Virus record (IMG/VR): IMGVR_UViG_3300047553_000257
Coordinates: 1-56,916 of that record
DNA: 56,916 nt
Origin: a virus
Taxonomy: Duplodnaviria; Caudoviricetes
Strand: one strand, 5' to 3'
In this document: positions 181 to 52,953 of the stretch, one piece after another
How positions within the stretch are numbered: the stretch's first letter is position 1
Layout of the letters: each line of letters opens with the position of its first letter
Notes under the pieces: model-generated
Database searches by the model: none
Seen by the model: the letters and a program-made list of their open reading frames with translations, nothing else
What the model was told of the DNA's origin: nothing
Translations under genes and position numbers: made by a program

Positions 181-660
181 CTATTGCAGCGTATCGCTGT
201 CGTCTTCGTCGCTCATGTCTAGGTTTGCGAGGAAGTCGCCGCCATTGATGGTCTCGATCTGTTTCTTCTCAGGCGCGAAGATACCTTCTACCTTACCCAG
301 TAGCTCGAGAGCGCGGATGCGTGCGGCTGCGGGGCTGTCATCGTCCTTGGCTTCGTCCATGAGCTTCGAGACTATCCAGTCAGCATCGAGCGAGAGCCTC
401 TCCTTCTGCTCCGTCAATGTAGGTACCAGCCTCTTCTGTATCTTCTCCATCTTAAGCAGCTCACACGCCGTCACTCGCGAACCTTTCGGTGCATAACCTG
501 CGGTGATTGCTGCCTGCGAACCGTTGCCACCATTGGCGATGTAGGCGTGGATAAACGCCTGTTGCTTTGGCGTGATGTAGTCAGGGTTCTGGCTAGCCAT
601 GATGCGTGCTTTACCCTCTGGGCTCAGCTCTTTCTCTTTGGTCATTCTATTGATCCTCAT
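181..660 (-). CDS. terS: Terminase small subunit
   Basis: N-terminal HTH signature TPKQQAFIHAYIANGGNGSQAAITAGY...ACELLK and C-terminal ARIRALELLGK, typical of TerS. The true start may be the internal ATG of MTKEKE. Confidence 0.88.
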   Translation of the reverse strand: MRINRMTKEKELSPEGKARIMASQNPDYITPKQQAFIHAYIANGGNGSQAAITAGYAPKGSRVTACELLKMEKIQKRLVPTLTEQKERLSLDADWIVSKLMDEAKDDDSPAAARIRALELLGKVEGIFAPEKKQIETINGGDFLANLDMSDEDDSDTLQ

Positions 661-730
661 TGCAGTCTGTCCTCTCCCTATACAGTCTTATCCCTCTATT
701 GGAAACAAGAGTACGGGATCGCCGCCCTCT

Positions 731-751
731 GGGTTTTTCCGCCGAAATTTT
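731..751 (+). repeat. GGGTTTTTCCGCCGAAATTTT motif, copy 1
   Basis: Near-identical copies at 1101-1123, 1363-1383, 13103-13123 and (reverse) 54103-54125. Confidence 0.75.
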
Positions 752-770
752 GGGGCAGCCATGACGTGTC

Positions 771-799
771 TTGACGCCTTCATCATCCGTCCGTATTGG
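771..799 (+). promoter_or_regulatory. Putative sigma70-type promoter
   Basis: TTGACG-N17-TATTGG upstream of the ORF starting at 826. Confidence 0.45.
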
Positions 800-825
800 C
801 GGCGCGTTCACTACACAAAGGATCA

Positions 826-1047
826 ATGGACATGTACACAAAGAACGAGCCGATCATCGATAAGGTCGCCTCCAACCTCTACCTCATCGATATCAATGAA
901 AAGTCTTTTGAGCTGGGGCGCTGGCCTTACGGACACAAGCGTGGGTCGATCTGGAAAGCCTATGAGGTGACTGACGACGAAGTCCGGTACATCGAGACCT
1001 TCACCACCATGCGGGAAGCTATGACAGCCATGAAGGCTATGGCTTAG
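826..1047 (+). CDS. Hypothetical protein
   Basis: ORF with AAAGGA SD, upstream promoter-like sequence and downstream terminator. Confidence 0.65.
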   Translation: MDMYTKNEPIIDKVASNLYLIDINEKSFELGRWPYGHKRGSIWKAYEVTDDEVRYIETFTTMREAMTAMKAMA

Positions 1048-1073
1048 TCTCTCTCCCCTATATGGGAATTAAC

Positions 1074-1106
1074 GGGGGTCGGCATCGCTGGCCCCTTTTC
1101 TTTTTT
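1074..1106 (+). terminator. Intrinsic terminator
   Basis: GGGGTCGGC-ATC-GCTGGCCCC hairpin followed by a T-run. Confidence 0.65.
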
Positions 1107-1123
1107 CCGCCGAATTTTTGGGG
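1101..1123 (+). repeat. TTTTTCCGCCGAATTTTT motif, copy 2
   Basis: Direct repeat of the 731-751 core. Confidence 0.7.
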
Positions 1124-1362
1124 TGCAATCTAAGCGACCCCACTAGTGTGCTTCACTACTCAGTCGATCAAGCTTTTCACATCGAGAGGCCAGCGGGGTC
1201 TATGCCCTTCGCTTTACTCGCCGTCATCCTCATCGTCAACAGGCTGGGGCTTGCCTGTCCGTTCAGTGATGCACGGCTCGATCTCTTTGAAGGCTGCGTC
1301 TAGCCATCTCTCCAGCTCTTTATCCACTACATGACATCCACATGATGGGGTCGCTGCCTCTT

Positions 1363-1383
1363 GGGTTTTTCCGCCGAAATTTT
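1363..1383 (+). repeat. GGGTTTTTCCGCCGAAATTTT motif, copy 3
   Basis: 21-nt identity to 731-751. Confidence 0.75.
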
Positions 1384-1645
1384 AGGCTAAGTTGATGAGG
1401 GCGAGGCCCACTGTCACCGCTAACCAGATGAAACGCTCAGCCATCTTGATTGCACCAGATTGGTTAGTCGCTGACTTCTCCAGTGACCGCAGCCGCCCTT
1501 CGTGATCGTCGATGGCCTCCCTGTGACCGTGCAACCGTTCATCCACCCGCGACAGCAGCCGCAGCGCATCCGCTATGGATTTCATCTCTTCTTCGATCCG
1601 CCCAAGGCGGTGGTCAATGGCTGGCAAATCCACAATAGGTCTCAC
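1382..1645 (-). CDS. Coiled-coil protein with C-terminal TM helix (XhlA/holin-like)
   Basis: Heptad-rich N-terminus (RLGRIEEEMKSIADAL...HEGRLRSLE) followed by hydrophobic FIWLAVTVGLALINLA. Confidence 0.6.
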   Translation of the reverse strand: MRPIVDLPAIDHRLGRIEEEMKSIADALRLLSRVDERLHGHREAIDDHEGRLRSLEKSATNQSGAIKMAERFIWLAVTVGLALINLA

Positions 1646-1740
1646 TGGTTAATCACTACGATCTCCATATCATCGAGTGACGTTGTACGCGAGTGCAAAG
1701 AAAGTTTTATCGAAACTTTTTCAATACGTTATGGGCCATG

Positions 1741-1805
1741 AAGTAAAAAAACATAAAAAAATGTTTGGGGGTGGGTTGACACATCAAAATACCTTCGTCT
1801 ATTTA
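1741..1805 (+). promoter_or_regulatory. Probable strong early promoter with A-rich UP element
   Basis: TTGACA at 1776-1781, CTATTT/TATTTA at 17/18-nt spacing, A-tracts at 1741-1761; heads the early operon. Confidence 0.6.
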
Positions 1806-1838
1806 CTAGGTCGTCGGCAGCGACACAAAACACTGACC

Positions 1839-1855
1839 CGCTCTTTGACATTGTG
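1839..1855 (+). promoter_or_regulatory. boxA-like (Nus) antitermination element
   Basis: CGCTCTTTGACATTGTG, versus rrn boxA TGCTCTTTAACA and lambda nut boxA CGCTCTTA; about 30 nt after the predicted transcription start. Confidence 0.55.
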
Positions 1856-1947
1856 AAACGCTTGATACCTACGGGGGCTTCTGTCCCCGCTAGGATCATC
1901 ACACCGCAGTCCGCTGCCGTCTGGTGATTTTAGCAAGGAGAAAGTAC

Positions 1948-2169
1948 ATGAAAGACGTAAACATGATCATGGCAGTCGCCAACGCAATGGACGCTGCAGC
2001 AGACGGATATGCCGACGATGAAAAGGTCTTATTCGGCGGAGAGTTCTGGTTCGCTGGTCGGCTGCGGGAAGAGGCAGACGATCTGATCGACGCCAACATC
2101 GAGGAGTGGGCGGACGCTCAGATGGCAGAGATGGTCGAGGCCACTCGCGGCAAAGTCGTAAATTTCTGA
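1948..2169 (+). CDS. Small acidic hypothetical protein (first early gene)
   Basis: AAGGAG SD then ATG at 1948; D/E-rich 73 aa. Confidence 0.75.
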   Translation: MKDVNMIMAVANAMDAAADGYADDEKVLFGGEFWFAGRLREEADDLIDANIEEWADAQMAEMVEATRGKVVNF

Positions 2170-2215
2170 CTTCCCCAGACGGTGGGGTTCTGCTCCACCG
2201 CGAGGATGAATTCAG
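2166..2215 (+). ncRNA. Intergenic structured RNA motif (CC-AGA-C/G-CRA-GG family), copy R1
   Basis: Extended hairpin CTGA-C-TTC-C-CC-AGA-CGGTGG...CCACCG-CGA-GG-AT-GAA-T-TCAG from the stop codon to the next SD; repeated at 2407 and 4110. Confidence 0.65.
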
Positions 2216-2229
2216 CAAGGAGAAAAAAC

Positions 2230-2409
2230 ATGGCATATCTCAGCACCTACGCAGCCTTCGTTCGCTACGGCAACGATGAGCCAGAACAGCGCTGGACTGG
2301 CCTCACCAAGGGACAGGCCAAGTGGCGCTATCACTGGATAAAACGCAACTACTACAGCCGCTTTAGGAGCTTCCGCGAATATGGATGGGAGCGTGAGTGG
2401 CAAGCCTAA
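2230..2409 (+). CDS. Hypothetical protein
   Basis: AAGGAG SD; 59-aa aromatic/basic ORF. Confidence 0.7.
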   Translation: MAYLSTYAAFVRYGNDEPEQRWTGLTKGQAKWRYHWIKRNYYSRFRSFREYGWEREWQA

Positions 2410-2452
2410 CACCACCAGACGGCGGAGCAATCCGCCGCGAGGATGGCGCTAG
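2407..2452 (+). ncRNA. Intergenic structured RNA motif, copy R2
   Basis: CCA-CC-AGA-CGGCGGA-GCAA-TCCGCCG-CGA-GG-A-TGG; same internal loop as R1 with different stems and a GNRA tetraloop. Confidence 0.62.
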
Positions 2453-2475
2453 TGCCAAATACGAAAGGAATATTT

Positions 2476-2862
2476 ATGTCTTTGAATTGGAACGTATCGA
2501 ACATCGCGAACAGCGAAGAAGTCTGCTTCTTTCACTACACAGAGGAGGGTGAGCCTCAGCGCCGACTGACGCAGTCCACCGAAAACTTGATCTTCCTCAC
2601 GATGGTCGTTGGCTTGGGCCGGATCACCGAAAGCAACTACAAAGAGTTCTACAAGCGGATCGCGCTGTTCGAACGCCTTCGAGGTTGTGTGCGGGTCAAG
2701 CGGAGCGACAGCGGCAAGTTCGTTGATGATCCCTACACGCTCGAGGATATCCGCCAGCACATTGGCCTCACCGTTAACGTGTCGGACGAAAAGCCAGACG
2801 CATGGCGTAAACGGATTCTGAAGAGCTGGGAGCATGATCTGGTGACCGAGCGCCACCACTAA
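2476..2862 (+). CDS. Hypothetical protein
   Basis: AAAGGA SD, ATG at 2476, 128 aa. Confidence 0.75.
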   Translation: MSLNWNVSNIANSEEVCFFHYTEEGEPQRRLTQSTENLIFLTMVVGLGRITESNYKEFYKRIALFERLRGCVRVKRSDSGKFVDDPYTLEDIRQHIGLTVNVSDEKPDAWRKRILKSWEHDLVTERHH

Positions 2863-2922
2863 GTCGAAACCCCTTCGGGGGTCCGTTCCAGACTGACCGC
2901 TGGGCGCTGATGAGACAGGTCA
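2863..2922 (+). ncRNA. Type II hammerhead ribozyme HH1
   Basis: GTC-GAAA-CCCC(TTCG)GGGG-TC^ stem I CTGATGA-GAC; predicted cleavage after C2883; pseudoknot TGACC/GGTCA. Confidence 0.92.
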
Positions 2923-2937
2923 TTTAAGGAGACTGAC

Positions 2938-3342
2938 ATGAGAGAAGATCACCACACGTTCGAGCCGCACACTGAGAGCGCAGCAGATCACTTCTGCGAC
3001 CGCTGCTTCAGCTATCACGGCGGGTTTGAGGGCTGCGAAGAAGAAGAGGAAGAAGAAGAGATGATCAGCTTTGAGCAGGTCTCTGCCTCTCTCCCCCTTC
3101 GCGTCGAGGTAAACGGGGAAACCGTCCACAGGGTCACAGCTTGGAAGGTACCACGCGATGCCACTGAGGAGCAGGTGAAAGAGGCGATGCACTACTGGAT
3201 CGAAGCTGAATACTGCCAGCATGAGCATGATTGCTGTGGCTACTACTACGCCGGAACGCCGCAGCTTTTGGGTGGCCGCACCTACTGGGACAACGACACA
3301 GAGGTCGTTTTTGTCCTCCAAACCGACACACTGAACGTCTGA
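2938..3342 (+). CDS. Cys/His-rich hypothetical protein with poly-Glu linker
   Basis: AAGGAG SD; CDRC...H and CQHEHDCCG motifs. Confidence 0.7.
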   Translation: MREDHHTFEPHTESAADHFCDRCFSYHGGFEGCEEEEEEEEMISFEQVSASLPLRVEVNGETVHRVTAWKVPRDATEEQVKEAMHYWIEAEYCQHEHDCCGYYYAGTPQLLGGRTYWDNDTEVVFVLQTDTLNV

Positions 3343-3354
3343 AAGGTACAAAAC

Positions 3355-3522
3355 ATGGCAATCAATTACGGCGATCTTGAATGCAGCCCTTGGCACATCG
3401 CCAGACAGGAAGCTGCGGCAGAAGCTAGGTTCGAACGCTTGATCCGCGAAGACACTGAGCGCGAAGACAGGCTGCGCGAGTACGACATCTGGCAGCAAGA
3501 GATGCGCGACTTGGAAGACTGA
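3355..3522 (+). CDS. Small acidic hypothetical protein (55 aa, not in ORF track)
   Basis: AAAGG SD; MAINYGDLECSPWHIARQE...MRDLED; stop is 2 nt before HH2. Confidence 0.7.
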   Translation: MAINYGDLECSPWHIARQEAAAEARFERLIREDTEREDRLREYDIWQQEMRDLED

Positions 3523-3524
3523 TA

Positions 3525-3584
3525 GTCGAAACCCCTTCGGGGGTCTGGTTGGGACTGACCGCCCACCACTGATGAGACTGGTCA
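3525..3584 (+). ncRNA. Type II hammerhead ribozyme HH2
   Basis: Intact core (GAAA, GTC^ at 3545, CTGATGA at 3569-3575); stem I TGGT(T)GGG/CCCACCA; pseudoknot TGACC/GGTCA. Confidence 0.93.
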
Positions 3585-3597
3585 AATGGAGATCGAA

Positions 3598-3771
3598 ATG
3601 ATTGACGCAATAAAAACATTCTTTGCTGGCTTGGCCGTTCTGGTTGTTGCCAGCCTAATCATCGTCCAGCCCCGCTACATTGGCTATGGCTGCAAGAACG
3701 CAAATGTTCCGCTGCTCGCTAAGTACGAAAGCGACTTCCCCGCATGCTCGCGGATCGAACCAATTTTCTAA
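3598..3771 (+). CDS. Small membrane-anchored protein
   Basis: GGAG SD; N-terminal hydrophobic helix and two Cys. Confidence 0.65.
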   Translation: MIDAIKTFFAGLAVLVVASLIIVQPRYIGYGCKNANVPLLAKYESDFPACSRIEPIF

Positions 3772-3783
3772 GGGAGAGTACCA

Positions 3784-4113
3784 ATGACACAAGTTACCGA
3801 TCTTGACCGCTTCGCCACCAAGGGCGAGGCCGCAGTAGTGAAACGTCTAGTCCGCATCGTCCTCGAGCGCGGGTACATGGTCAGCATCAATGACGGCGAA
3901 GAGTGGACTGTTACCCTGAGCACTAACCGCAACGAAATCCTGTCCGCCCTCGCAACCACTGGCGAGGACATCCTCCGCCTTTACAAGGACGGCGAACGGG
4001 CTGGATCGCTCTGGCTGGTCTACGGCAATGCTGAGGACGGCAGCGAGCTGATCGCGGATCACAGTGACAACGATGCATGCCACAGCATCTGCTGGGAGCT
4101 GTACCCCGACTGA
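3784..4113 (+). CDS. Hypothetical phage protein
   Basis: GGGAG SD; 109 aa. Confidence 0.75.
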   Translation: MTQVTDLDRFATKGEAAVVKRLVRIVLERGYMVSINDGEEWTVTLSTNRNEILSALATTGEDILRLYKDGERAGSLWLVYGNAEDGSELIADHSDNDACHSICWELYPD

Positions 4114-4160
4114 CTTCCCCAGACTGCGGTTCTTCGGAGCCGCAGCAAGGACGAATTCAG
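4110..4160 (+). ncRNA. Intergenic structured RNA motif, copy R3
   Basis: CTGACTTCCCCAGAC-[TGCGGTTC(TTCG)GAGCCGCA]-GCAAGGACGAATTCAG; flanks nearly identical to R1, inner stem completely different. Confidence 0.65.
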
Positions 4161-4175
4161 CAAAGGAGAAAGTAA

Positions 4176-4370
4176 ATGGAACGATTTGAGGTTACTGCCC
4201 ACTACGCAACTTGGAGCGGCCACCACGCATCCTGTAGGCGCATCGTTGAGGCAGAAGATGCGGGACAGGCGCTCGACATCGTTGCTGGTCGGGTAAAGAG
4301 CTGGAAGCGGTACATGGGCAAGCTCGACTTGGACTGCATACAACTACGCGAAGGGAATGAAAATGACTGA
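4176..4370 (+). CDS. Hypothetical protein
   Basis: AAGGAG SD; 64 aa. Confidence 0.7.
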   Translation: MERFEVTAHYATWSGHHASCRRIVEAEDAGQALDIVAGRVKSWKRYMGKLDLDCIQLREGNEND

Positions 4371-4548
4371 AGAGAAACTGGATGACTACACCGCCGTCAT
4401 GATCGCTGAGGGCGTCGAAGATGCGGACTATGACCGCACCGTCGAAGCTTGGCAGTACCTGCATGACACTGGCCTTGCCTACCGCCTCCAAGGCTGGTTT
4501 GGCCGCACCGCACAGTCGCTGATCGATCAAGGGATCATTGGCGAATAG
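4357..4548 (+). CDS. Small phage protein (LQGWFGRTA motif)
   Basis: Coupled to the upstream ORF; stop TAG overlaps HH3. Confidence 0.75.
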   Translation: MKMTEEKLDDYTAVMIAEGVEDADYDRTVEAWQYLHDTGLAYRLQGWFGRTAQSLIDQGIIGE

Positions 4549-4607
4549 TCGAAACGCCTTCGGGCGTCTGCGAAGGGGTGGCCTCCCCGCACTGATGAGA
4601 CAGGCCA
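4548..4607 (+). ncRNA. Type II hammerhead ribozyme HH3
   Basis: Stem III covaried (CGCC-TTCG-GGCG); GTC^ at 4568; CTGATGA-GAC; pseudoknot TGGCCT/AGGCCA. Confidence 0.93.
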
Positions 4608-4624
4608 TGTAAGGAAAAAGAATA

Positions 4625-5002
4625 ATGAAGATCGTATCTATTACTTTTCAAGAAACAACCCGTTTCGTATCGAAGCCATACGCCTACCTCACCGACATCG
4701 ACGATATCAGTGTCGGCGATACCGTTGTCGTGGACTCTCCGCATAACGGCTTCGCATGCGTGAAGGTCGTCAGTATTGAGGAAAACGCTGAGCGGATCGA
4801 GAAGGCATACAAGTGGATCGTCTGCAGGGTCGATACGAAATCGTATGTCGAGCGTTTGGAGCGCGAAGAAAGGCGTCAGACCGTTATCGCTAAGCTCAAG
4901 AAGCTCGAACGGCACGTCCTCGAAGAAGATCGTTTCGCGATGCTGGCTAAGCACAGCCCAGAGGCATCTGCCCTACTCGAGGAGCTCAAGACGCTTAAGT
5001 AG
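4625..5002 (+). CDS. Hypothetical phage protein
   Basis: AAGGA SD; KPYAYLTD...VGDTVVV beta-rich N-terminus and helical C-terminus. Confidence 0.78.
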   Translation: MKIVSITFQETTRFVSKPYAYLTDIDDISVGDTVVVDSPHNGFACVKVVSIEENAERIEKAYKWIVCRVDTKSYVERLEREERRQTVIAKLKKLERHVLEEDRFAMLAKHSPEASALLEELKTLK

Positions 5003-5060
5003 TCGAAACCCCTTCGGGGGTCTGGCGAGGGTTGCCTCCCGCCACTGATGAGACAGGCAA
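5002..5060 (+). ncRNA. Type II hammerhead ribozyme HH4
   Basis: Intact core; GTC^ at 5022; stem I TGGCG(A)GG/CCCGCCA; pseudoknot TTGCCT/AGGCAA directly before the AGGAG SD. Confidence 0.93.
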
Positions 5061-5072
5061 AGGAGACTGAAA

Positions 5073-5369
5073 ATGAAAATTTCAACCGCACCTTGGCTTT
5101 TAGAGGTTAAGCCAACAAAGGACGGAACGAGCCTTCGGGTTATCGACCAAGACCACCGTGTCTTGGCTCTAATGAAGGGCAGCGGTCGGGAAAAGCTGGC
5201 TAACGCCTATCTGATGGCGGCTGCCCCCGAAATGCTCAAAGCGCTCGACCATGTACTGAGATTTAATCGGCGCAGTGAGGCATTAAATGAAAACGGCAAC
5301 CTGCACCCGTTTCTCATTAATGAGATCGATCAGGTAATCAACAAAGCAAAAGGGAAAGCCAATGACTGA
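5073..5369 (+). CDS. Hypothetical phage protein (ANAxLxAAAPEML motif)
   Basis: AGGAG SD; motif common in small phage early proteins. Confidence 0.75.
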   Translation: MKISTAPWLLEVKPTKDGTSLRVIDQDHRVLALMKGSGREKLANAYLMAAAPEMLKALDHVLRFNRRSEALNENGNLHPFLINEIDQVINKAKGKAND

Positions 5370-5615
5370 AGGACAACTACACCTAGCAATCCGCTGCGGC
5401 ATCTTCGCGATCATCGTGATCGCCGCCAACCTCTACGCATGACATGCAGTGGCGCGTGATCCTCATGGCGGATGGCAAGAGCGCTGTCCGCCACGTTAAA
5501 GCCATCAGTGCTGCACTCGCGAGATGGACAGCTATCAGCGATTACAAACTGGAAACCGGACTCGATGCCACTGTGGGACACATGGTGCGCACCAGCCGCT
5601 AATGTATTTATATGC

Positions 5616-5644
5616 TTGACGCATAAAACGAGCGTCATTAAGAG
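5616..5644 (+). promoter_or_regulatory. Putative promoter for ardC with overlapping inverted repeat
   Basis: TTGACG-N17-TAAGAG; TGACGC...GCGTCA palindrome. Confidence 0.45.
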
Positions 5645-5666
5645 CATTTATAGAAGGGAATCGATT

Positions 5667-6536
5667 ATGAAACAGGACGTTTACGAAACGGTCACCAACA
5701 AGGTGCTCGAGATGATGGAAACACATGGCGCGAACTGGATCAACCCGTTCGCTCGCAAGGGCAAGGCGCTTCTGCCGCACAACATCATCAGCAAGAAACC
5801 ATACCGTGGGATCAACCACCTCATGCTGCTCTGGTCGCCTTACGAAACGCCTGCTTGGGGAACCTTCAAGCAGTGGAACGATCAGGGCTGCTCAGTCCGT
5901 AAGGGCGAGAAGTCCACGCCAATCGTTTTCTGGCAGTTTATCGAGAAGGAAGACGACAAGGGGCAGAAGATCACTATTCCGTTCCTTCGTCAGTACCATG
6001 CATTCAACGTAGCTCAGGTGGAGGGTGATTTTGCTGAGCGTCTGTTGACCTGTACAGATACTGGTACAGGTGCAGAAGAGATCGCGGTGGCTGAGGATTT
6101 TTTCCGCCAAATCCCTGCGGAGGTACACCACACGTCCACTGGTCGTGCGTACTACAACCCCATGAAAGACTTCATCAGCATGCCAGCCAAGGACGTGTTC
6201 GAAGACACGCCGACAAGCAGCGCTACTGAATGCTACTACAGCACCCTGTCGCATGAGCTGACGCACTGGACTGGACACCCAGACCGTCTGGATCGTCTCG
6301 AGAAGTCTCGCTTCGGTGATGAGACCTATGCGCGTGAAGAGCTGGTCGCTGAGATCGGTGCTGCACTGCTTTGCGCTCACCTCGAGATCAGCGCGACCCC
6401 TCGCCCAGATCATGCCCAATACCTCAACGGCTGGATGAAGGCGCTGTCCGACCACAAGAAGGAATTCGTGTCAGCAGCGGCGGCTGCATCTAAGGCCGTC
6501 GATTTCGTTATTGAAGCAGCAGGAAAGGAAGCCTAA
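5667..6536 (+). CDS. ardC: ArdC-family antirestriction protein (ssDNA-binding domain plus zincin-like metallopeptidase)
   Basis: YETVTNKVL...W..PF, PYRGIN, WGTFKQW, VRKGEK, AYYNP..DFISMP, YYSTLSHELTHWTG..RLDR, YAREELVAEIGAA; likely start is ATG 5667. Confidence 0.92.
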   Translation: MKQDVYETVTNKVLEMMETHGANWINPFARKGKALLPHNIISKKPYRGINHLMLLWSPYETPAWGTFKQWNDQGCSVRKGEKSTPIVFWQFIEKEDDKGQKITIPFLRQYHAFNVAQVEGDFAERLLTCTDTGTGAEEIAVAEDFFRQIPAEVHHTSTGRAYYNPMKDFISMPAKDVFEDTPTSSATECYYSTLSHELTHWTGHPDRLDRLEKSRFGDETYAREELVAEIGAALLCAHLEISATPRPDHAQYLNGWMKALSDHKKEFVSAAAAASKAVDFVIEAAGKEA

Positions 6537-6931
6537 TGATTACCAGAATAACACCGCACAAAAGCAAGTTGCGCATCTCATCAGACAGCGTCTGGCCCCT
6601 ACGCAGTGCAACGGGGCAGACCTTCGCTGAGAAACAGAGGGACACGTTGAAAGGAAAGACCGTGACACTGAATGACCATGTCATCGCCGCCATAAGATCA
6701 CTTGAGGCCGCAAACGATATCAGATCCGCGCATGCGCACCTGCCCTACCGCGAGCAGCCACAGGTTCATGACGAACTACTGATCCAATTGCTGGAGGCGA
6801 TGATTGCCTTCGACGAAGAGCCGCAAGGCACGATAGAAGAGCTGACCCGCGAGGATGAGCAGTACATAACCCGCTTCCCCTTACCCAACGATGCTGAGTG
6901 GGATTACGCAGTCGCCATAGGTGCAGCATGA
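6536..6931 (+). CDS. Hypothetical protein
   Basis: Coupled TAATG overlap with ardC. Confidence 0.65.
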   Translation: MITRITPHKSKLRISSDSVWPLRSATGQTFAEKQRDTLKGKTVTLNDHVIAAIRSLEAANDIRSAHAHLPYREQPQVHDELLIQLLEAMIAFDEEPQGTIEELTREDEQYITRFPLPNDAEWDYAVAIGAA

Positions 6932-7058
6932 GCGACTACCTAAAGCTACTCGCCAAGAACGTGCCGCCAATGCCCGAAGAGCATCTGCTCAAGCTGAATT
7001 CAGAACAGCTACGGGCTTACGAGAAGTCACGCAATGAACGATCAAAGGAACAAAGCAA

Positions 7059-7499
7059 ATGACAGATGATAGATACGGAAAAATCCACACAGACGGGAGC
7101 CGCTCCGGTGGTCAGCCGTTAAACGATAGCATTGAAGCAAAAGCCTTGGCGCTGGTGAATGAGGTGCTGGCGGAGCGGGGCGTTCTCTACTATGAACTTG
7201 AATACGTTAGCGCCTTCCACACGCAAGAAGCACTATGCCGCGCCATCGAACAGCACGAAGCCTTCCGCCAAGAGGTGAGCGATGCGGTGGTGGAATATAA
7301 AGCGGACCAGCCTTACGTTTGGAAGCAAAGTGTGTCTGATTACTTTTGTCGCTTCATCATTTCCAAGCCTAAGCCTGACCCGCTGGTGGAGGTGTTGGAC
7401 GAAATAACATGGACAGGTGCCTACACCACGCCTTTTGCCGTCCGTATCCGCGCCGCACTGGAAGCGCGTGGGCTGGAGATACGGGAGAAGGGGCGGTGA
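7059..7499 (+). CDS. Hypothetical phage protein
   Basis: AAGGA SD; 146 aa. Confidence 0.7.
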   Translation: MTDDRYGKIHTDGSRSGGQPLNDSIEAKALALVNEVLAERGVLYYELEYVSAFHTQEALCRAIEQHEAFRQEVSDAVVEYKADQPYVWKQSVSDYFCRFIISKPKPDPLVEVLDEITWTGAYTTPFAVRIRAALEARGLEIREKGR

Positions 7500-7687
7500 C
7501 GCCAAATGAAATCACAATCGCCGTATTTTTCGGGATGTTATATTTCGCGTCGGTATATGTTGTGTGTCTGTCGTATATATTGAGCAACACCGACGATTGG
7601 GTTGACGCATTTTGGTGGCCCATCCATTTGGTAAAAGCCCTGACGAAATCGTTGCTACGGGCTTTGTTTACGGGGTGGCGGTTATGA
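7496..7687 (+). CDS. Small membrane protein
   Basis: GTGA overlap start; hydrophobic ITIAVFFGMLYFASVYVVCL. Confidence 0.6.
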   Translation: MTPNEITIAVFFGMLYFASVYVVCLSYILSNTDDWVDAFWWPIHLVKALTKSLLRALFTGWRL

Positions 7688-7761
7688 CCCTGCGCCAATT
7701 CCTGTTCGATAATTTCGGCTGGGATATTTACGACTGGGCCGACGATGAGATTAGATTTTAA
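7684..7761 (+). CDS. 25-aa micro-protein, copy 1 (MTLRQFLFDNFGWDIYDWADDEIRF)
   Basis: ATGA overlap; paralog at 8470-8547 with mostly synonymous changes. Confidence 0.75.
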   Translation: MTLRQFLFDNFGWDIYDWADDEIRF

Positions 7762-7772
7762 GGAGAAATTAA

Positions 7773-7982
7773 ATGACGAGAGGCCCAGCATCCGAATGGC
7801 AGTCAGGTTATAACGCTGGCATAGAAGCCGCCATCAATGCGTTGGAAGCCGACGCCAAGCTATGCGATTGCGCTGCACTTGAAGAGCGCGAGTGCGCTTG
7901 CGGGGCGTGGGCTGATTACAAGAACATAACGTCAGCAAGGGCTGTGGAGATTGTCCGTGCAGTAAAGGATCAAAAAGCATGA
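7773..7982 (+). CDS. Hypothetical protein with CxC motifs
   Basis: AAGGAG SD; N-terminus shared with the 8075 ORF. Confidence 0.7.
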   Translation: MTRGPASEWQSGYNAGIEAAINALEADAKLCDCAALEERECACGAWADYKNITSARAVEIVRAVKDQKA

Positions 7983-8074
7983 AGCGTTACACAATTAGCA
8001 AGGGCAAGGCGTCCAAGTGTCGCATTGTTGAAGGCGTTAAATTTGTCACCAGACTAGTATAAGGAACAAGGAAA

Positions 8075-8287
8075 ATGACAGACCCAGCATCCGAATGGCA
8101 GTCAGGTTATGACGCCGCCATTGATTCATGCATCGCTGCGATTGAAAAACAAAAGGCAAGCTTTGCATCTGAGCAATACGCTGTTGGTCAGCCACTGTCT
8201 TCGTTTCAAGAGCGGTTCGCTTGCGATCAATGCATCGATGCAATCGCAGCATTAAAGAAACCTGTTAAAGAAACGCCGTTTTCTTAA
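8075..8287 (+). CDS. Hypothetical protein
   Basis: AAGGA SD; PASEWQSGY N-terminus shared with the 7773 ORF. Confidence 0.7.
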   Translation: MTDPASEWQSGYDAAIDSCIAAIEKQKASFASEQYAVGQPLSSFQERFACDQCIDAIAALKKPVKETPFS

Positions 8288-8302
8288 CATGAAGGAAAGC
8301 CA

Positions 8303-8473
8303 ATGACTGAAAGCTACCGACTACTACAAGACGGACTGCCAGTAGCGTGGGTGGAAGGACGCAATGCCGTTGCCGAGATCGCTCACTACGCCGCTGTATA
8401 TGCCCAAGACGGGCCGGTTGTAATCCAGCACAAGGTCAACGGACGCTGGAAAGAATGGAAGGAAAACAAATGA
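8303..8473 (+). CDS. Hypothetical protein (56 aa, not in ORF track)
   Basis: AAGGA SD; MTESYRLLQDGLPVAWVEG...WKEWKENK; ATGA overlap with the next ORF. Confidence 0.65.
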   Translation: MTESYRLLQDGLPVAWVEGRNAVAEIAHYAAVYAQDGPVVIQHKVNGRWKEWKENK

Positions 8474-8547
8474 CCTTGCGTCAATTCCTCTTTGACAACT
8501 TCGGATGGGACATTTACGAGTGGTCGCCAGACGAAATTAGATTTTAA
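8470..8547 (+). CDS. 25-aa micro-protein, copy 2 (MTLRQFLFDNFGWDIYEWSPDEIRF)
   Basis: 22/25 aa identical to 7684-7761. Confidence 0.75.
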   Translation: MTLRQFLFDNFGWDIYEWSPDEIRF

Positions 8548-8582
8548 GAATACCCCACCCCAACTCCTTTTAATCTCGACAA

Positions 8583-8684
8583 CTACGGCGGGATCGACGG
8601 CTAGACAGCGGAAGTATCAAACACCTTTGGGATGGGGGGACATATTCGGGGTGTGAATGTCTAGCAACGTAGCAATTTTCGATC
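8583..8684 (+). ncRNA. Candidate structured RNA upstream of nrdJ
   Basis: Nested stems CTACG/CGTAG, GCTAGACA/TGTCTAGC and ACACC/GGTGT, plus a possible pseudoknot GATCGA/TCGATC. Confidence 0.45.
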
Positions 8685-8823
8685 AGCGGCGAACATAAAA
8701 AGAACAGCCGCAACTCTCTCTAAACACACAACTATTTTTTTCAACTGATGCAAACACATTAGTTGAAGCAACACTGCTTTAGCCGTATGGCTGAGGGTTC
8801 CACCTATGTAATGGAGAATTACA

Positions 8824-10761
8824 ATGCAACTACCGACTGACTACCAATCCTATATTCACAAGTCCCGTTACGCACGTTTCATTGACGAGAAAGGTCGTCG
8901 CGAACATTGGGATGAAACCGTCTCAAGATACTTCGACTTCTTCGAGGAAGAGCTTGAAACCCACAACGGACACAAGGTTTCCGCTGGTCTGCGCAGTGAG
9001 CTCGAGGACGCTGTCCTAAGTCTCGCCGTCATGCCATCCATGCGTGCGCTGATGACCGCAGGAGAGGCTCTGAAGCGCGAGAGCGTTGCTGGCTACAACT
9101 GTAGCTATCTACCCATAGATCGGCCCAAGGCGTTCGCTGAGGCGCTCTACGTTCTCATGTGCGGTACAGGCGTTGGCTTCTCTGTCGAGCGTCAAGAGAT
9201 CAGCAAGCTACCCGTTGTGCCTGAGCACTTCGACCGCACTGCATTCGACGTTATTGTGGGTGACAGTAAGCTTGGTTGGGCAGAGGCGTACCACACGCTA
9301 CTGACGTGCCTATACGCTGGCACTATTCCTAATGTGGACTACAGCCAGATTCGTCCTGCAGGTGAGCGCCTTCGCGTCTTCGGTGGTCGTGCGTCTGGCC
9401 CAGATCCTTTGCGTGACCTGTTCGAGTTCACGATCCGCACCATGCGCAATGCTGCTGGCCGTAAGCTGAACAGTCTCGAGGTACATGAGATCGTCTGCAA
9501 GATCGGTGAGATCGTGGTGGTTGGTGGTGTCCGCCGCTCCGCTGAGATCAGCCTTTCGAATCTGTCCGACCAGCGCATGCGTGACGCCAAGTCTGGCAAC
9601 TGGTGGATGGACAAACCATACCTTGCGCTAGCCAACAACTCCGCTGCCTATACAGAAAAGCCAGAGGTTGGTCAGTTCATGGATGAATGGTCTGCTTTGT
9701 ACCGCTCGAGATCTGGTGAGCGTGGCATCTTCAATCGTGAGGGAGCCATCAATAAGATCCTGCGTCTTGGTCGTCGTGACCACCGCTATGACTTTGGCAC
9801 TAACCCGTGCGGCGAGATCGTGCTGCGTCCTCGTGGCTTCTGCAACTTGACCGAAGCTGTGGTGCGTGAGAACGACAGCCTTGGTGACCTTAAAGAGAAG
9901 GTGCGTCTCGCATCAATCCTTGGAACTTGGCAGTCTACCCTCACCCGCTTCAACTTCATCGAGCCAGAGTGGCGTCGCAATGCAGAAGAAGAGCGCTTGC
10001 TTGGCGTGTCCCTCACCGGCATCTATGACAACCCACTGATGCGTGGTGACAACGGTCTTGATCGTTTGGGTACGGCACTGGAGAAGCTGAAGGCGACCGC
10101 CATTAAGGCTAACCGTCTCGAGGCTCACGACATTGGGATCAACCCATCTGTCGCCGTTACTACCGTCAAGCCATCCGGCACTGTGTCTCAGTTGGTGAAT
10201 AGCCCCAGCGGAATCCACCAAGGGCATGCGCAGTACTACATCCGTCGCGTCACTGGTGACAACAAGGATCCAATCACCGCCTTCATGGGTGATGCTGGCA
10301 TTCCTAACGAGCCGCACGCTTCCAAGCCTCAAGGCATGACGGTCTTCGCCTTTCCGGTGAAGCTTGGCGAGGGTACTACCACTCGCGATGACGTGACTGC
10401 ATTGCAGCACCTCGAGCTTGTTCGCGCCTACAACACGCATTGGTCTGAGCACGCCGTGTCTTGCACCATCAGCGTGAAAGAGAATGAATGGCCGACTGTG
10501 GGTGGCTGGGTCTTCGATCACTTCGATGACATCTGTGGCCTGTCGTTCCTGCCTCACTTCGAGGGTGATAGTTCGTACACGCAGATGCCTTACGAGACGA
10601 TCACTAAGGCTGAGTACGAGCAACGTCTCGCTGCAATGCCGAAGGAGATTGATTGGGCTGGCCTCGCCTTCTATGAGAAGGGTATCGACACAGTTACTGG
10701 CACACGCGAACTAGCGTGCGTTGGTAACACCTGCGAGATCGTAGACGCACAGTCTCTATAA
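8824..10761 (+). CDS. nrdJ: Class II (adenosylcobalamin-dependent) ribonucleotide reductase
   Basis: YNCS, LMCGTGVGFS, GGVRRSA, TNPCGEI, CNLTE, TVKPSGTVSQL and C-terminal CxxxxC redox tail; no nrdB present. Confidence 0.95.
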   Translation: MQLPTDYQSYIHKSRYARFIDEKGRREHWDETVSRYFDFFEEELETHNGHKVSAGLRSELEDAVLSLAVMPSMRALMTAGEALKRESVAGYNCSYLPIDRPKAFAEALYVLMCGTGVGFSVERQEISKLPVVPEHFDRTAFDVIVGDSKLGWAEAYHTLLTCLYAGTIPNVDYSQIRPAGERLRVFGGRASGPDPLRDLFEFTIRTMRNAAGRKLNSLEVHEIVCKIGEIVVVGGVRRSAEISLSNLSDQRMRDAKSGNWWMDKPYLALANNSAAYTEKPEVGQFMDEWSALYRSRSGERGIFNREGAINKILRLGRRDHRYDFGTNPCGEIVLRPRGFCNLTEAVVRENDSLGDLKEKVRLASILGTWQSTLTRFNFIEPEWRRNAEEERLLGVSLTGIYDNPLMRGDNGLDRLGTALEKLKATAIKANRLEAHDIGINPSVAVTTVKPSGTVSQLVNSPSGIHQGHAQYYIRRVTGDNKDPITAFMGDAGIPNEPHASKPQGMTVFAFPVKLGEGTTTRDDVTALQHLELVRAYNTHWSEHAVSCTISVKENEWPTVGGWVFDHFDDICGLSFLPHFEGDSSYTQMPYETITKAEYEQRLAAMPKEIDWAGLAFYEKGIDTVTGTRELACVGNTCEIVDAQSL

Positions 10762-12680: not shown

Positions 12681-13622
12681 TCAAATCCCCTCATCCTTGA
12701 TCGTGTAGTGGTGCGGGTTACGGTCACCGTAGATCTCGACGTTCTTCGCCGCCAGCTCGTTGAGCTGATCATAGAAGTTGGCACTGCGCGGGGGGCGATC
12801 ATCCTCACACTTGCCTTGGATCATTGCGTCACGCAGCACGACCAGCGAGCAGATTGCTTTGGTTACGTGGCTGAGCTGAGAGTCCGGATCAGTGTCTTCA
12901 CCTTCCCACCAACTAAACAGGTGGCGGATCGTTGCGTCGTAATAGACCGATGCCCTTACGCCTACACCGCGATAGTTGTGGCGACCGTACTTTAGTGCGC
13001 CTTCGAGCATCCCTACTCCTACCTCAGCTAGTACTGCTGCTGATACGGTGGACAGGGGAGCTTTCTTTATACCGACAGCGTCCTTCGGGTTCGTTGGCTT
13101 CTGGGTTTTTTCCGCCGATTTTTCACCGACTGTGGCACCGATAGTGGCACCGACGGTTATCGTTCTTCCACCGACGATTATCGGAAACGTATCGCCGTCC
13201 ATCTCTTGAGCATACCGCCAGTAAATGATGTCGCCATCTAAACCAGAGTGCTTCCAGTAAAGCTTCGACGCAGCTCTTTCCATAAGCGCGTTCCCTCCAC
13301 GCAGAACAACATCTACTAAGCCAGATGGTCGCCACTCCCCCTTCTTCGCACCATTCCACGCCGTCCAATTGGAGCTTGGCTCTTTGACGGAACGCCACGC
13401 AATAATGCTGGTATCCGATAAGCCATTGCCCCAAAAGAACGAACGAACATCACCCTCTTTTTTCTCGCCATTGCCATACAGCACCTCAACATTGCCCAAA
13501 AACGGACTTTCTGGTGCGGCTGTGTTCCAGCCATGAGGCACACACACATCCCAATCCTCTATAAGGTTGCCGTACATGTACGTGCGCTCGTTAGCCTTCA
13601 TTATTTTGTGATAATCATCCAT
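12681..13622 (-). CDS. dATP/dGTP diphosphohydrolase (DUF5664-like) with N-terminal tandem repeat domains
   Basis: NPKDAVGIKKAPL...GALKYGRHNYR...YYDATIRHL..WWEGEDTDPDSQLSH. Confidence 0.82.
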   Translation of the reverse strand: MDDYHKIMKANERTYMYGNLIEDWDVCVPHGWNTAAPESPFLGNVEVLYGNGEKKEGDVRSFFWGNGLSDTSIIAWRSVKEPSSNWTAWNGAKKGEWRPSGLVDVVLRGGNALMERAASKLYWKHSGLDGDIIYWRYAQEMDGDTFPIIVGGRTITVGATIGATVGEKSAEKTQKPTNPKDAVGIKKAPLSTVSAAVLAEVGVGMLEGALKYGRHNYRGVGVRASVYYDATIRHLFSWWEGEDTDPDSQLSHVTKAICSLVVLRDAMIQGKCEDDRPPRSANFYDQLNELAAKNVEIYGDRNPHHYTIKDEGI

Positions 13623-21085: not shown

Positions 21086-21120
21086 GTTTAATCATTTAGG
21101 TTGTGATCGGAATAGCTTGT

Positions 21121-21945
21121 ATGGAAAAGACTTGGAATGACGCCGCTGGGCGTTGGCTGAATGGACGGACCACTAAACACCTTAAGCAAGAGCAGCACTA
21201 TATAGAGGTGCTCTCGCATTACTTGGGTGGCCTGCCTCTTGGTCGTATCACAAAGGGGGTGTTGGCGGATCTTCGCGATGACATGCTGAAGACCCGCGCT
21301 GTATCTACCGTCAACCGTTACCTGACCGTGCTGCGGTCAGTGCTTAACATGGCGAGGGACGAGTGGGAATGGATCAACACTGTACCCAAGATCAAGAGAA
21401 TGGAAGAGACTTCGAGGGTTCGGTACATCGACAAGGACGAAGCCCGTCGCCTGATCAGAGAGCTGCCGTCACATCTGAAGGATAAGGTTATCTTCGCCCT
21501 CACCACTGGACTTCGGGACGCCAACGTCCGCGAGCTTCGCTGGGAAGAGGTTGACCTTGAGAACAGGATGGTGACGATTGTCGGCGAGAAAATGAAGAAC
21601 GGGAAGCCACTATCAATCCCTTTGAATGACACCGCATACGACGTTCTCTGGAAACGATTCAGGTCTAAGGACAAGAACGCTGAGTGGGTATTTGCATATG
21701 GCGGTAAGCCAGTGCAGCGTAGCAATACGAAAGCGTTTAGGAATGCTCTGAAGAGAGCTGGGATCGAGAACTTCAGATGGCACGACCTCCGGCATACGTG
21801 GGCCTCGTGGCATATCCAGAAGGGTACTCACACCGCCGCCGTTCGGGAGATGGGTGGTTGGTCTGATGACCGTATGGTTCAACGCTATGCGCATCTGTCT
21901 ACGGAGCACTTGCGCAAAGTGGCGGACAACGTCGGATCGCTGTAA
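21121..21945 (+). CDS. int: Tyrosine recombinase/integrase
   Basis: TTGLR, KMKNGK, HDLRHTWAS, GGW, VQRYAHL catalytic residues. Confidence 0.93.
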   Translation: MEKTWNDAAGRWLNGRTTKHLKQEQHYIEVLSHYLGGLPLGRITKGVLADLRDDMLKTRAVSTVNRYLTVLRSVLNMARDEWEWINTVPKIKRMEETSRVRYIDKDEARRLIRELPSHLKDKVIFALTTGLRDANVRELRWEEVDLENRMVTIVGEKMKNGKPLSIPLNDTAYDVLWKRFRSKDKNAEWVFAYGGKPVQRSNTKAFRNALKRAGIENFRWHDLRHTWASWHIQKGTHTAAVREMGGWSDDRMVQRYAHLSTEHLRKVADNVGSL

Positions 21946-22035: not shown

Positions 22036-22080
22036 AATAAAAAGCCCCCGAACCATACTTGGAACGGGGGCTTTTTTATT
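22036..22080. terminator. Bidirectional intrinsic terminator
   Basis: AATAAAAAGCCCCCG...CGGGGGCTTTTTTATT between convergent genes. Confidence 0.8.
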
Positions 22081-51370: not shown

Positions 51371-52953
51371 TACCCCACGACACTATCGAACGGCTCGTAC
51401 TTAGTTGCTACGGTTTTCGTTCTACGATTACGTGGCATTGAGTTAAGTCCGAATAGAGCTATTGCGTATGCCATTACTCTGTCATCAAAGCAACCCGCCT
51501 TCGCATTCGTAATGCCTTTGTCATCAATAACGTAGTTACGCAACTCTTTTACAAGTTCTGTGTCTGATATTCCACTATCGCGCTTACGCAGCAATGCAGC
51601 GAGGTTATCGATAATCAATGGCTTTGTCTTACTGGACGTGTAGAAACCAGCACGCTTAGTCATTCTATCTGCATACGCATCATCTACTGTGTGCTCTACA
51701 TAAAGATTGGGGTAACCTAGATCCTGCATCCGCCGGATCGTGGTAAGACCGTGGTTGTTTCGCTCTGGAATGATGTAGGCGCGGTTGAACATCTTGCCCA
51801 AAGCGCAGAGCTGGTCACCAAGCTCGTATGGATCGATGTGCAAATGCCATGATGCCACCTGTCGACCAAGGGAATCCAGTACCTGAGCCACTGTGTAGTC
51901 GCCGTGCGCCAAGCCCTCAGCGACGTCGACGCCGATGCAATAGCGCTCATCCGGATCAACGCGCTTGATCCACTGCTTGTAAGATCCCTTCTCGTGCGGC
52001 GTGATTATGCCGTCCTTAAAGCTGCCCTCGATGTCTGGGCTGTAGCAGTTACGCTCTGCATCCATGAGGCAGTCTTCTTCAACAAAGCTGCGACCAGAGA
52101 ACAGGAACGCTTCTTCTGGTGTGCATGGGTATTCCTGCTTGAACAGATCCAAAGATCCAAGCTCGTCGATCTTGGACCTGCGCCAGTTCAACTTATCGTT
52201 GGATAGGTTGTACAGTGCAGCCAGCTTTTCTTCTTCCGTTGTGCGGGTGAAATACGGATCGCACTTCTTCTCGTACTCTGGGAGCCAGAACCAAGGAATA
52301 AAGATCACGATCCAGTCGCCGTCTCCTCTGAGCGCCTTCATCACTTGGTCGTAGAACCATCCACCGGCACCGTTAGCTGTAGACTCAACGATAACTTCGG
52401 AGTCTTCGGCGGGGACCGACTGCAGTAGACCTGCCACAATCTCGCCACTATTTGGATAAAAAGCAGCCTCAGATGCGTGGACGTAGCGGTTGGTCATGCC
52501 CCGACCAATGTTCGTGGATCGCGCCGTACCAATTCGGTATTGGGAGTTTAGCTTCTCGAAGACCATCGTGGTGGTCGTGCTGGTCGCAAGCGGCGGCTTA
52601 AAGATCGGGTGAGCCGCATTGTCGTAGAAGTAGCGTACCATTCGGAAGATGGCGGTGGTCGACTCTGCAAGGTGGGAGAGCACGAAGGCGTTTGCGTTCT
52701 TGGTCTTGGTCGTCTTCCAGAAGAACCGACCCTCGACGTAGGTTGAGATCCCCATCTGCCGCCCTTTAATCACGAGAGCGCGGATACGACCGGTGTCGGC
52801 GAGCTGCTTCTCTAACTTCTCGTGGAGGATCATCTGACCGTAGTTGAGCTTGAAGCGCTTTTCTTCACCGCGCTTGTCGACGATGCGCAGCACGTTTTTC
52901 GCATACAGGGGGAAGTCCCCCATAAGCTTTTTAGCTACTGCCTCTATTTCCAC
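51367..52953 (-). CDS. terL: Terminase large subunit
   Basis: IKGRQMGIST (Walker A), HASEAAF (Walker B), ESTANG, IGVDVAEG..GDY, FDDRVMA. Confidence 0.95.
   Translation of the reverse strand: MEIEAVAKKLMGDFPLYAKNVLRIVDKRGEEKRFKLNYGQMILHEKLEKQLADTGRIRALVIKGRQMGISTYVEGRFFWKTTKTKNANAFVLSHLAESTTAIFRMVRYFYDNAAHPIFKPPLATSTTTTMVFEKLNSQYRIGTARSTNIGRGMTNRYVHASEAAFYPNSGEIVAGLLQSVPAEDSEVIVESTANGAGGWFYDQVMKALRGDGDWIVIFIPWFWLPEYEKKCDPYFTRTTEEEKLAALYNLSNDKLNWRRSKIDELGSLDLFKQEYPCTPEEAFLFSGRSFVEEDCLMDAERNCYSPDIEGSFKDGIITPHEKGSYKQWIKRVDPDERYCIGVDVAEGLAHGDYTVAQVLDSLGRQVASWHLHIDPYELGDQLCALGKMFNRAYIIPERNNHGLTTIRRMQDLGYPNLYVEHTVDDAYADRMTKRAGFYTSSKTKPLIIDNLAALLRKRDSGISDTELVKELRNYVIDDKGITNAKAGCFDDRVMAYAIALFGLNSMPRNRRTKTVATKYEPFDSVVGY

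Follow-up and report, generated by a model that had tools for sequence, protein, structure and literature searches.

Type II hammerhead ribozymes and a second structured RNA motif alternate at the gene junctions of a putative phage early operon

We analysed the leftmost plus-strand operon of the phage (Caudoviricetes) that is represented by the IMG/VR virus record IMGVR_UViG_3300047553_000257. The window, i.e., the stretch of DNA that was analysed, is the whole record of 56,916 bases, which is 100% complete according to CheckV. Based on the sequence and the list of its open reading frames (ORFs), the first 11 plus-strand genes span positions 1948-5369 and are separated by 10 junctions whose lengths are, in order, 60, 66, 75, 12, 75, 12, 62, -8, 76 and 70 nucleotides (nt). 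Each of the seven long junctions (60-76 nt) contains one RNA element and the three short ones (two of 12 nt and an 8-nt overlap) contain none. The seven elements are four type II hammerhead ribozymes (HH1-HH4) and three copies of a motif that we call R (R1-R3). A preliminary description of this DNA had claimed that an RNA element fills seven of the 10 junctions from the stop codon to the next Shine-Dalgarno (SD) sequence, and this layout is borne out by both the coordinates and the ORF list. The genes, with the lengths of their products in amino acids (aa), and the elements, with helix P1 denoting the outer helix of R and P2 its inner hairpin, are as follows.

1948..2169, plus strand: gene 1, 73 aa, no family
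2166..2215, plus strand: R1, an R copy with the core CCCCAGAC / GCGAGGATGA and a P2 hairpin of 9 base pairs (bp); P1 holds the TGA stop of gene 1; 68.9 bits, E 6e-19
2230..2409, plus strand: gene 2, 59 aa
2406..2452, plus strand: R2, an R variant (CTAACACCACCAGAC...GCGAGGATGGCGCTAG); P1 holds the TAA stop of gene 2; 54.5 bits, E 2e-14; fold z-score -3.67
2476..2862, plus strand: gene 3, 128 aa, family F1 (MSLNW...)
2862..2924, plus strand: HH1, type II hammerhead; predicted cut 2883/2884; Rfam model RF02276, 31.5 bits, E 0.0022 in 7 kb; core intact; pseudoknot UGACC/GGUCA
2938..3342 and 3355..3522, plus strand: genes 4 and 5, 134 and 55 aa, with a 12-nt gap without an element
3524..3586, plus strand: HH2, type II hammerhead; predicted cut 3545/3546; RF02276, 29.2 bits; core intact
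3598..3771 and 3784..4113, plus strand: genes 6 and 7, 57 and 109 aa, with a 12-nt gap without an element
4110..4160, plus strand: R3, an R copy with two core deviations (GCAAGGACGA); P1 holds the TGA stop of gene 7; 69.4 bits, E 4e-19
4176..4370 and 4363..4548, plus strand: genes 8 and 9, 64 and 61 aa, overlapping by 8 nt; gene 9 belongs to DUF7417
4547..4609, plus strand: HH3, type II hammerhead; predicted cut 4568/4569; RF02276, 43.8 bits
4625..5002, plus strand: gene 10, 125 aa; the sole Pfam match is ProQ-C-like and below the Pfam cut-off
5001..5062, plus strand: HH4, type II hammerhead; predicted cut 5022/5023; RF02276, 47.3 bits
5073..5369, plus strand: gene 11, 98 aa, missing or replaced in several relatives

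In the R elements, the stop codon (TGA, TAA and TGA) lies inside the outer helix, and in the hammerheads, the stop codon (TAA or TAG) is adjacent to the first base of stem II or overlaps with it. The outer helix of R1 ends at 2215 and the SD sequence AAGGAG starts at 2217, while the SD sequence that follows R2 lies about 10 nt beyond the end of the outer helix.

Full-length matches to the type II hammerhead model RF02276 (model positions 1-66 of 66) were found at four junctions with E values from 1.5e-7 to 0.0084. The core pattern (CGAAAC..GTC..CTGATGAG) matched the window four times, each time at one of HH1-HH4, against 0.00 matches expected from 100 shuffles, and CUGAUGA, GAAA and the cleavage triplet GUC are intact in all four elements. 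Each hammerhead starts at the stop codon (uAA-GUC or uAG-UC) and has a stem II of 3 bp and a stem III that is capped by UUCG. The order of GAAA, cleavage site and CUGANGA along the strand places the open ends in stem II, which is the type II topology. Moreover, five nucleotides of loop I form a pseudoknot with the 3' tail immediately ahead of the SD sequence; its two strands read UGACC/GGUCA (twice), UGGCC/GGCCA and UUGCC/GGCAA. Covariation was analysed in 29 distinct copies that came from the window phage and its relatives. Among these, 98.9% of 435 cells were paired and none of 500 shuffles matched the covariation score. The pseudoknot was paired in 100% of the cells, with double changes in two of its five pairs, while stems II and III and the outer part of stem I were paired in 95.7-100% of the cells; the core was invariant in 29 of the 29 copies of this phage group. 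The identification of the four elements as hammerheads, which was made in the preliminary description, is confirmed by the intact cores and the covarying pseudoknot: the motifs are genuine and are under selection for structure. Because the cores are intact and the structure covaries, the four hammerheads would be expected to cleave themselves after positions 2883, 3545, 4568 and 5022.

The hammerhead half of the operon is an ordinary example of a layout that has been in print since 2011 (Perreault et al.; PMC3088659). That paper describes prophages in which several hammerheads lie on either side of single genes or of short blocks of genes, and its authors proposed that hammerheads process long phage transcripts to operon-length or single-gene mRNAs. 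In vitro, three tandem arrangements cut polycistronic RNAs of about 2 kb, and activity in vivo was seen for one; the pseudoknots join stems I and II. The published hammerheads and those of the window share the ribozyme type, the pseudoknot between loop I and the tail of stem II and the one-strand intergenic placement in a phage operon. Both also have anti-restriction neighbours, ardA in Agrobacterium and an ArdC-like gene after the operon in the window. The difference is that the hammerheads of the window alternate with a second, non-hammerhead element; otherwise, nothing essential differs. Roseobacter phage CRP-7 (MK613349.1), the nearest cultured phage, carries one type II hammerhead (570-633, 50.1 bits) just before gp02. 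No R element was found in CRP-7, and neither R nor a type II hammerhead was found in CRP-804.

The second element, R, has the consensus cUGA-NNU-CCCCAGAC-(variable P2 hairpin)-GCGAGGAUGA-NNUCAG. It forms a rod of about 50 nt that consists of an 8-bp P1, a further 2 bp (a CC/GG step), a 3x3 internal loop and a variable GC-rich P2 of 7-11 bp. Minimum-free-energy folding gave the same rod (8, 2 and about 9-11 pairs), with energies of -22 to -34 kcal/mol and z-scores of -2.1 to -4.5. The pattern CCAGAC-N14-30-AGGAYG matched the window four times against 0.34 expected; three matches are the R copies (2175-2208, 2415-2445 and 4119-4153), and the fourth (52011-52038, minus strand), which is without a hairpin, was dismissed as chance. 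In viral contigs, a first loose pattern produced mostly chance matches among those listed; a hairpin filter left five new sequences, of which only those at L099 and L116 were R-like. A tighter pattern returned 65 stretches, i.e., 58 distinct matched sequences. The gap formed a hairpin of at least five pairs with flanks of the R form in 22 of these 58, and the other 36 were chance matches in coding sequence.

In an alignment of 20 R sequences, 93.7% of the cells were paired and 13 of the 19 pairs showed double changes, a result that none of 500 shuffles reached; when the partners were slid by 1-3 columns, only 31-43% of the cells were paired. A covariance model that was built from this alignment was run over 49 sources of phage and metagenome DNA and found 68 copies, 56 of them distinct; of the 68, six score weakly, at 20-30 bits, and are doubtful. 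The 56 distinct sequences, whose alignment was fitted to the model and hence leans toward the structure, had 91.0% of the cells paired and double changes in 14 of the 19 pairs, compared with 29-45% paired cells in the slid controls. The closing C-G pair of P2 is flipped to G-C in two sequences. G-U and U-G pairs are frequent (e.g., 22 cells at one P2 pair), which favours an RNA of the plus strand over a DNA hairpin. About 18 bases between the two helices are near-invariant, with the exceptions of C13>A, A16>G and the R3 copy of the window. P1 is tied to the coding sequence as well, since in 48 of 55 R copies its UGA or UAA is the true stop codon that ends the upstream gene (upstream frame open for at least 51 codons). 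That R is a real structured RNA is well supported. A side observation concerns the AUG in the R core (GGAUGA; 2203-2208 and 2440-2445 in the window, and in relatives), which is often in frame with the start of the next gene or opens a mini-ORF that ends by an ATGA or TGA-ATG overlap with it; in R3 of the window the triplet is ACG instead.

R and the hammerheads replace each other. In six related records (G001-G006), we found two to four R copies and two to four hammerheads each, counts that leave out two matches at E values above 0.1. Immediately upstream of the orthologous genes of family F1 (gene 3 in the window), there is an R2 element in five records (the window, G001, G002, G004 and G006) and a hammerhead in two (G003 and G005), and the layout of stop codon, element and SD sequence before F1 is identical in all seven. 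Family F5 (gene 9 of the window) follows an R3 in three records and an R2 in one metagenome contig; elsewhere, other genes lie in front of it. Because R and the hammerheads share the stop-to-SD slot and are exchanged among relatives, R can be regarded as the functional equivalent of a hammerhead. The slot also has a third kind of filler: in the contig L006 of the closest relative, a plain GGGGGGG-CUUC-GGCCCCC hairpin takes the place of R or a hammerhead at one gene junction (4057-4077). L006 differs from the window in that HH1 together with genes 4 and 5, gene 8 and gene 11 are absent; its first genes differ, and an additional gene lies between two near-identical hammerheads. When the contigs of relatives were placed on the window, their joints fell at 1940>2224, 2225>4361/4362/4386, 2861>3524, 4173>4361 and 5070>5361, all of them at elements or their common SD stretch; these joints are differences between phages at the DNA level and not RNA joints. 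At the joint 2861>3524, 22 letters are common to HH1 and HH2. The suggestion in the preliminary description that the repeats could be points for the swapping of gene cassettes is supported by these data, as the breakpoints of gene gain and loss in the six related records and the metagenome contigs are bounded by elements or the common SD sequence.

In Rfam 15, R is below the gathering score of every family, and no match at E values up to 10 overlapped it in a 7-kb search. Searches of short stretches gave only chance-level, sub-threshold matches on R. The best was the freshwater-2 RNA (RF02980) at 2172-2232 of the window, with 17 bits compared with a cut-off of 49.9 and an E value of 2.6 in 321 bases. 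The feature that both have in common is the initiation stretch AAGGAGAAAAnAAAUG after the hairpin. Membership of R in freshwater-2 was rejected since the match is far under the threshold and the hairpin part is unaligned; freshwater-2 may itself be a further module that freshwater phages use at gene junctions. No relevant paper was found by literature searches on the R core strings or on hammerheads combined with RNase III in early transcripts of phages, although the supplement of PMC3088659 may hold related operons, and a 2026 preprint on ribozyme discovery had no phage content. Because R reaches no Rfam 15 gathering score and nothing relevant was found in the literature, the motif appears to be undescribed so far. 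At the Rfam gathering scores, 20 R-bearing loci contained no other ribozyme family, the only matches being one hammerhead (L214) and two tRNAs (L215). Among 185,579 species genomes, the exact R pattern occurred in four contigs, one from Sphingomonas laterariae and three from metagenome-assembled genomes. When 151 sampled genomes from the class to which S. laterariae belongs were searched with the R model, a copy was found in one, namely the centre genome itself; this search scored only 36 candidates per genome and was of low sensitivity. R is rare in the cellular genomes sampled.

We propose an explanation in which an early transcript is cut by hammerheads, R is an equivalent processing site and the elements bound the shuffling of genes; taken as a whole, we hold it to be evenly poised. 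Host RNA polymerase would read the leftmost plus-strand operon as one long early transcript that would start near 1810, and the four hammerheads would cut it after GUC at the positions given above. The cut of a hammerhead leaves a 2',3'-cyclic phosphate on the upstream piece and a 5'-OH on the downstream piece. Each upstream mRNA would end just past its stop codon in the UUCG-capped stem III hairpin, C(UUCG)G, with the cyclic phosphate, and each downstream mRNA would begin with a 5'-OH stem I hairpin right before a standard SD sequence. At three further junctions, R would be the processing and end-protecting site. Recombination within the elements would shuffle genes between phages, because all of the modules have the same boundaries (element, SD sequence, ORF and a stop inside the next element).

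As to how R would be processed, we tentatively favour, at somewhat less than an even chance, a nick in its conserved internal loop by a double-strand-specific RNase III-like endonuclease of the host, because the rod is about two helical turns long and phage T7 offers a precedent. The early RNase III sites of T7 are irregular two-turn hairpins with an internal loop between the cistrons of a host-transcribed early operon, and after processing the upstream mRNA ends in a 3' hairpin. R likewise lies between cistrons and is an irregular duplex of about 20 bp or more with an internal loop, and the length of its rod is in the size class of RNase III substrates. Shape and position are the same in both, while the cleavage of R is a prediction only. 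Unlike in the T7 sites, the internal loop of R is kept across unrelated phages of varied G+C content, and the stop codon is fixed inside its helix. The preliminary description had read the operon as one transcript, driven by one promoter with a boxA, that is cut into smaller mRNAs. The bona fide hammerheads, their covarying pseudoknot and the swapping of cassettes speak for that interpretation, whereas the single transcript, a working boxA and the cutting of R are assumptions. The two candidate signals upstream of the operon are as follows.

1776..1804, plus strand: putative promoter of the early operon for host RNA polymerase; TTGACA (1776-1781), 17 nt, CTATTT (1799-1804); near-identical in the relative L006
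1840-1850, plus strand: boxA-like GCTCTTTGACA, with a leader hairpin at 1872-1889; a nut-like arrangement of putative function

We take the site at 1776-1804 to resemble the alphaproteobacterial promoter consensus. The match of GCTCTTTGACA at 1840-1850 is exact; with one mismatch allowed, there were four matches in the window compared with 2.1 expected, which is not significant by count. The boxA-like 15-mer is kept in leaders at five loci, which belong to three contigs besides the window (L006/L136, L137/L190/L201 and L224); two more matches are L136, a second copy of the L006 contig, and L003, the window itself.

Several observations weigh against the proposed explanation. The RNA sequencing runs in which relatives were found are stored as contigs and contain 5-11% of the sequence words; four of them were compared with the window and showed no ends of RNA molecules, and stretches that they leave uncovered carry no weight. 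A scan with the sigma-70 consensus missed the TTGACA/CTATTT promoter, and in the region 600-9000 both promoter-like sites (four compared with 5.3 expected) and terminator-like sites (seven compared with 7.7) are at chance level; the single early transcript is an assumption for these reasons. Two of the four hammerheads are under the Rfam gathering score, which is 37 for RF02276 and is exceeded by HH3 and HH4 (43.8 and 47.3) and missed by HH1 and HH2 (31.5 and 29.2). R3 of the window deviates at two otherwise invariant core positions, while relatives keep the consensus GCGAGGATGA at this site. Furthermore, R occurs once or twice in each of 12 other viral records, three of which are proviruses, and these lack type II hammerheads at E values of 0.01 or lower; R is independent of the hammerheads in this sense; 13 further records had been scanned for RF02276, the thirteenth being the related record G006. 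Finally, the near-invariant loop of about 18 bases is common to phages of 53-70% G+C and exceeds the needs of known RNase III sites. Such a loop suggests that a specific protein or catalysis is involved.

In one alternative, R is not cut at all. R would be a binding site for a host or phage RNA-binding protein or a structural insulator, and would adjust how the following gene is translated and be a barrier to exonucleases or to 5'-end-dependent scanning by RNase E. We consider this unlikely, though it is to be taken seriously. The combination of an invariant loop with variable helices on either side suits a protein operator, 1-10 nt separate the end of P1 from the SD sequence, the SD-like GAGG of the core faces a CCCC stretch and the frame of the AUG often meets the start of the next gene. 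Single copies, as found in 10 of the 12 unrelated records (the remaining two have two copies), are also in keeping with it. However, R3 of the window has ACG instead of AUG, and no partner protein was identified, a search for a protein common to the R-bearing phages not having been made. In addition, the exchange with catalytically intact hammerheads argues that the slot concerns cleavage. In another alternative, R would be an undescribed class of self-cleaving ribozymes of about 50 nt that is used interchangeably with hammerheads on early transcripts and needs no host enzyme. About 18 near-invariant bases in a loop between two freely covarying helices are the conservation pattern of a small ribozyme, R fills the hammerhead slot and its core is loosely like a hammerhead minus stem I (AGA-C[hairpin]G-CG-AGGAUGA compared with GAAA-C[hairpin]G-UC-[stem I]-CUGAUGA). 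Against it, the predicted fold is a plain rod that has neither a junction nor a conserved loop with which a tertiary contact could be made, both the length and the sequence of the P2 loop differ among copies, and no hammerhead model matched R at an E value of 10 or lower. Known small ribozymes rely on junctions or pseudoknots, which we count against a catalytic R. PMC5737381, citing Weinberg 2015, states that searches in the neighbourhood of hammerheads yielded twister-sister, pistol and hatchet, a history that speaks for a catalytic R. Like R, these and the RAGATH RNAs are conserved structured RNAs near hammerheads; R differs in being under the gathering scores of all Rfam 15 models, those of these families included, which we count in favour of a new class. 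On balance, a self-cleaving R seems distinctly improbable to us.

It is also conceivable, but very improbable, that the elements act mainly as DNA, i.e., as recombination or operator sequences or as promoters of a phage polymerase, and that the RNA folds are incidental. The coincidence of indel breakpoints with the elements and their repetition in one orientation ahead of genes would be explained in this manner. The compensatory changes that keep both helices of R would not, and neither would the many G-U pairs (mismatched in DNA, with C-A in the opposite strand) or the hammerhead cores that are invariant in all 29 copies. Among the window proteins scanned, no phage RNA polymerase was found, and the protein of 3256 aa is a polyvalent protein. 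Other identities of R were rejected as well. CUGA and GGAUGA are present as in a K-turn or a C/D box, but their registers clash with the covarying P1. A SECIS or read-through signal does not agree with the UAA in R2 and with the SD sequences that the downstream genes have of their own. The hairpin loops vary, which speaks against an N-type boxB; the U tract of an intrinsic terminator is absent; and an N4-type hairpin promoter is at odds with the G-U pairs in the helices and with the finding of no virion polymerase among the proteins scanned. A CsrA site, whose consensus ARGGAUG resembles, was set aside too.

Several further features of the leader and the flanks of the operon were recorded. The minus strand of the leader (1885-1937) has a weak, degenerate, inverted R-like match (13.6 bits, E 0.13), and the leader RNA thus carries CCGUCUGGUG; about 500 nt downstream, R2 has the perfect complement of this stretch, CACCAGACGG, on its 5' side. 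To the left of the operon, between divergent small genes, there are three repeat copies (715-754, 1083-1122 and 1347-1386), each with a GC hairpin or a T-run before TTTTTCCGCCGAAATTTTGGG, and one of the terminator-like calls (1074-1096) falls at such a copy. To the right, a second promoter-like site (5616-5644; TTGACG, 17 nt, TAAGAG) precedes the ArdC-like anti-restriction gene (5667-6536), and its TTGACG is kept in L006. The record opens with CCTCCCCCCTCCCCCCT (positions 1-17), a direct repeat that is rich in C and lies at the genome end.

The protein family scan showed that the window encodes a primase/helicase, ribonucleotide reductase, portal, terminase and an internal virion protein. Because a tyrosine integrase is encoded at 21103-21945 (PF00589, E 5.4e-32), the phage is probably temperate. 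The protein of 3256 aa (22079-31849, minus strand) has ART-PolyVal (ADP-ribosyltransferase) and LPD38 domains, and its identity as an N4-type polymerase was ruled out. The protein at 12681-13622 (minus strand) has the N-terminal domain of dATP/dGTP diphosphohydrolases (PF18909, E 9.5e-24), which hints at a manipulation of the nucleotide pool. We found no cultured phage that is close in DNA to the window; among terminases, that of Roseobacter phage CRP-7 is the nearest, with a large subunit (TerL) that is 35% identical. The sequencing runs that hold DNA of the window are mostly freshwater and lake metagenomes.

The hammerhead in CRP-7 may offer an experimental system for the hammerhead part of the proposed explanation. 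Synthetic biologists build ribozyme insulators by hand in order to standardise the 5' and 3' ends of cistrons, and the junction elements of this phage group would be a natural parallel in that they standardise cistron ends. The comparison of the seven phages further shows that the junction elements double as seams for the exchange of gene cassettes. R, a structured RNA with 56 distinct copies, sits in the hammerhead slot and replaces hammerheads upstream of the same gene in sister phages, which makes it a test case for a new ribozyme class, a portable nuclease-processing signal or a protein operator.

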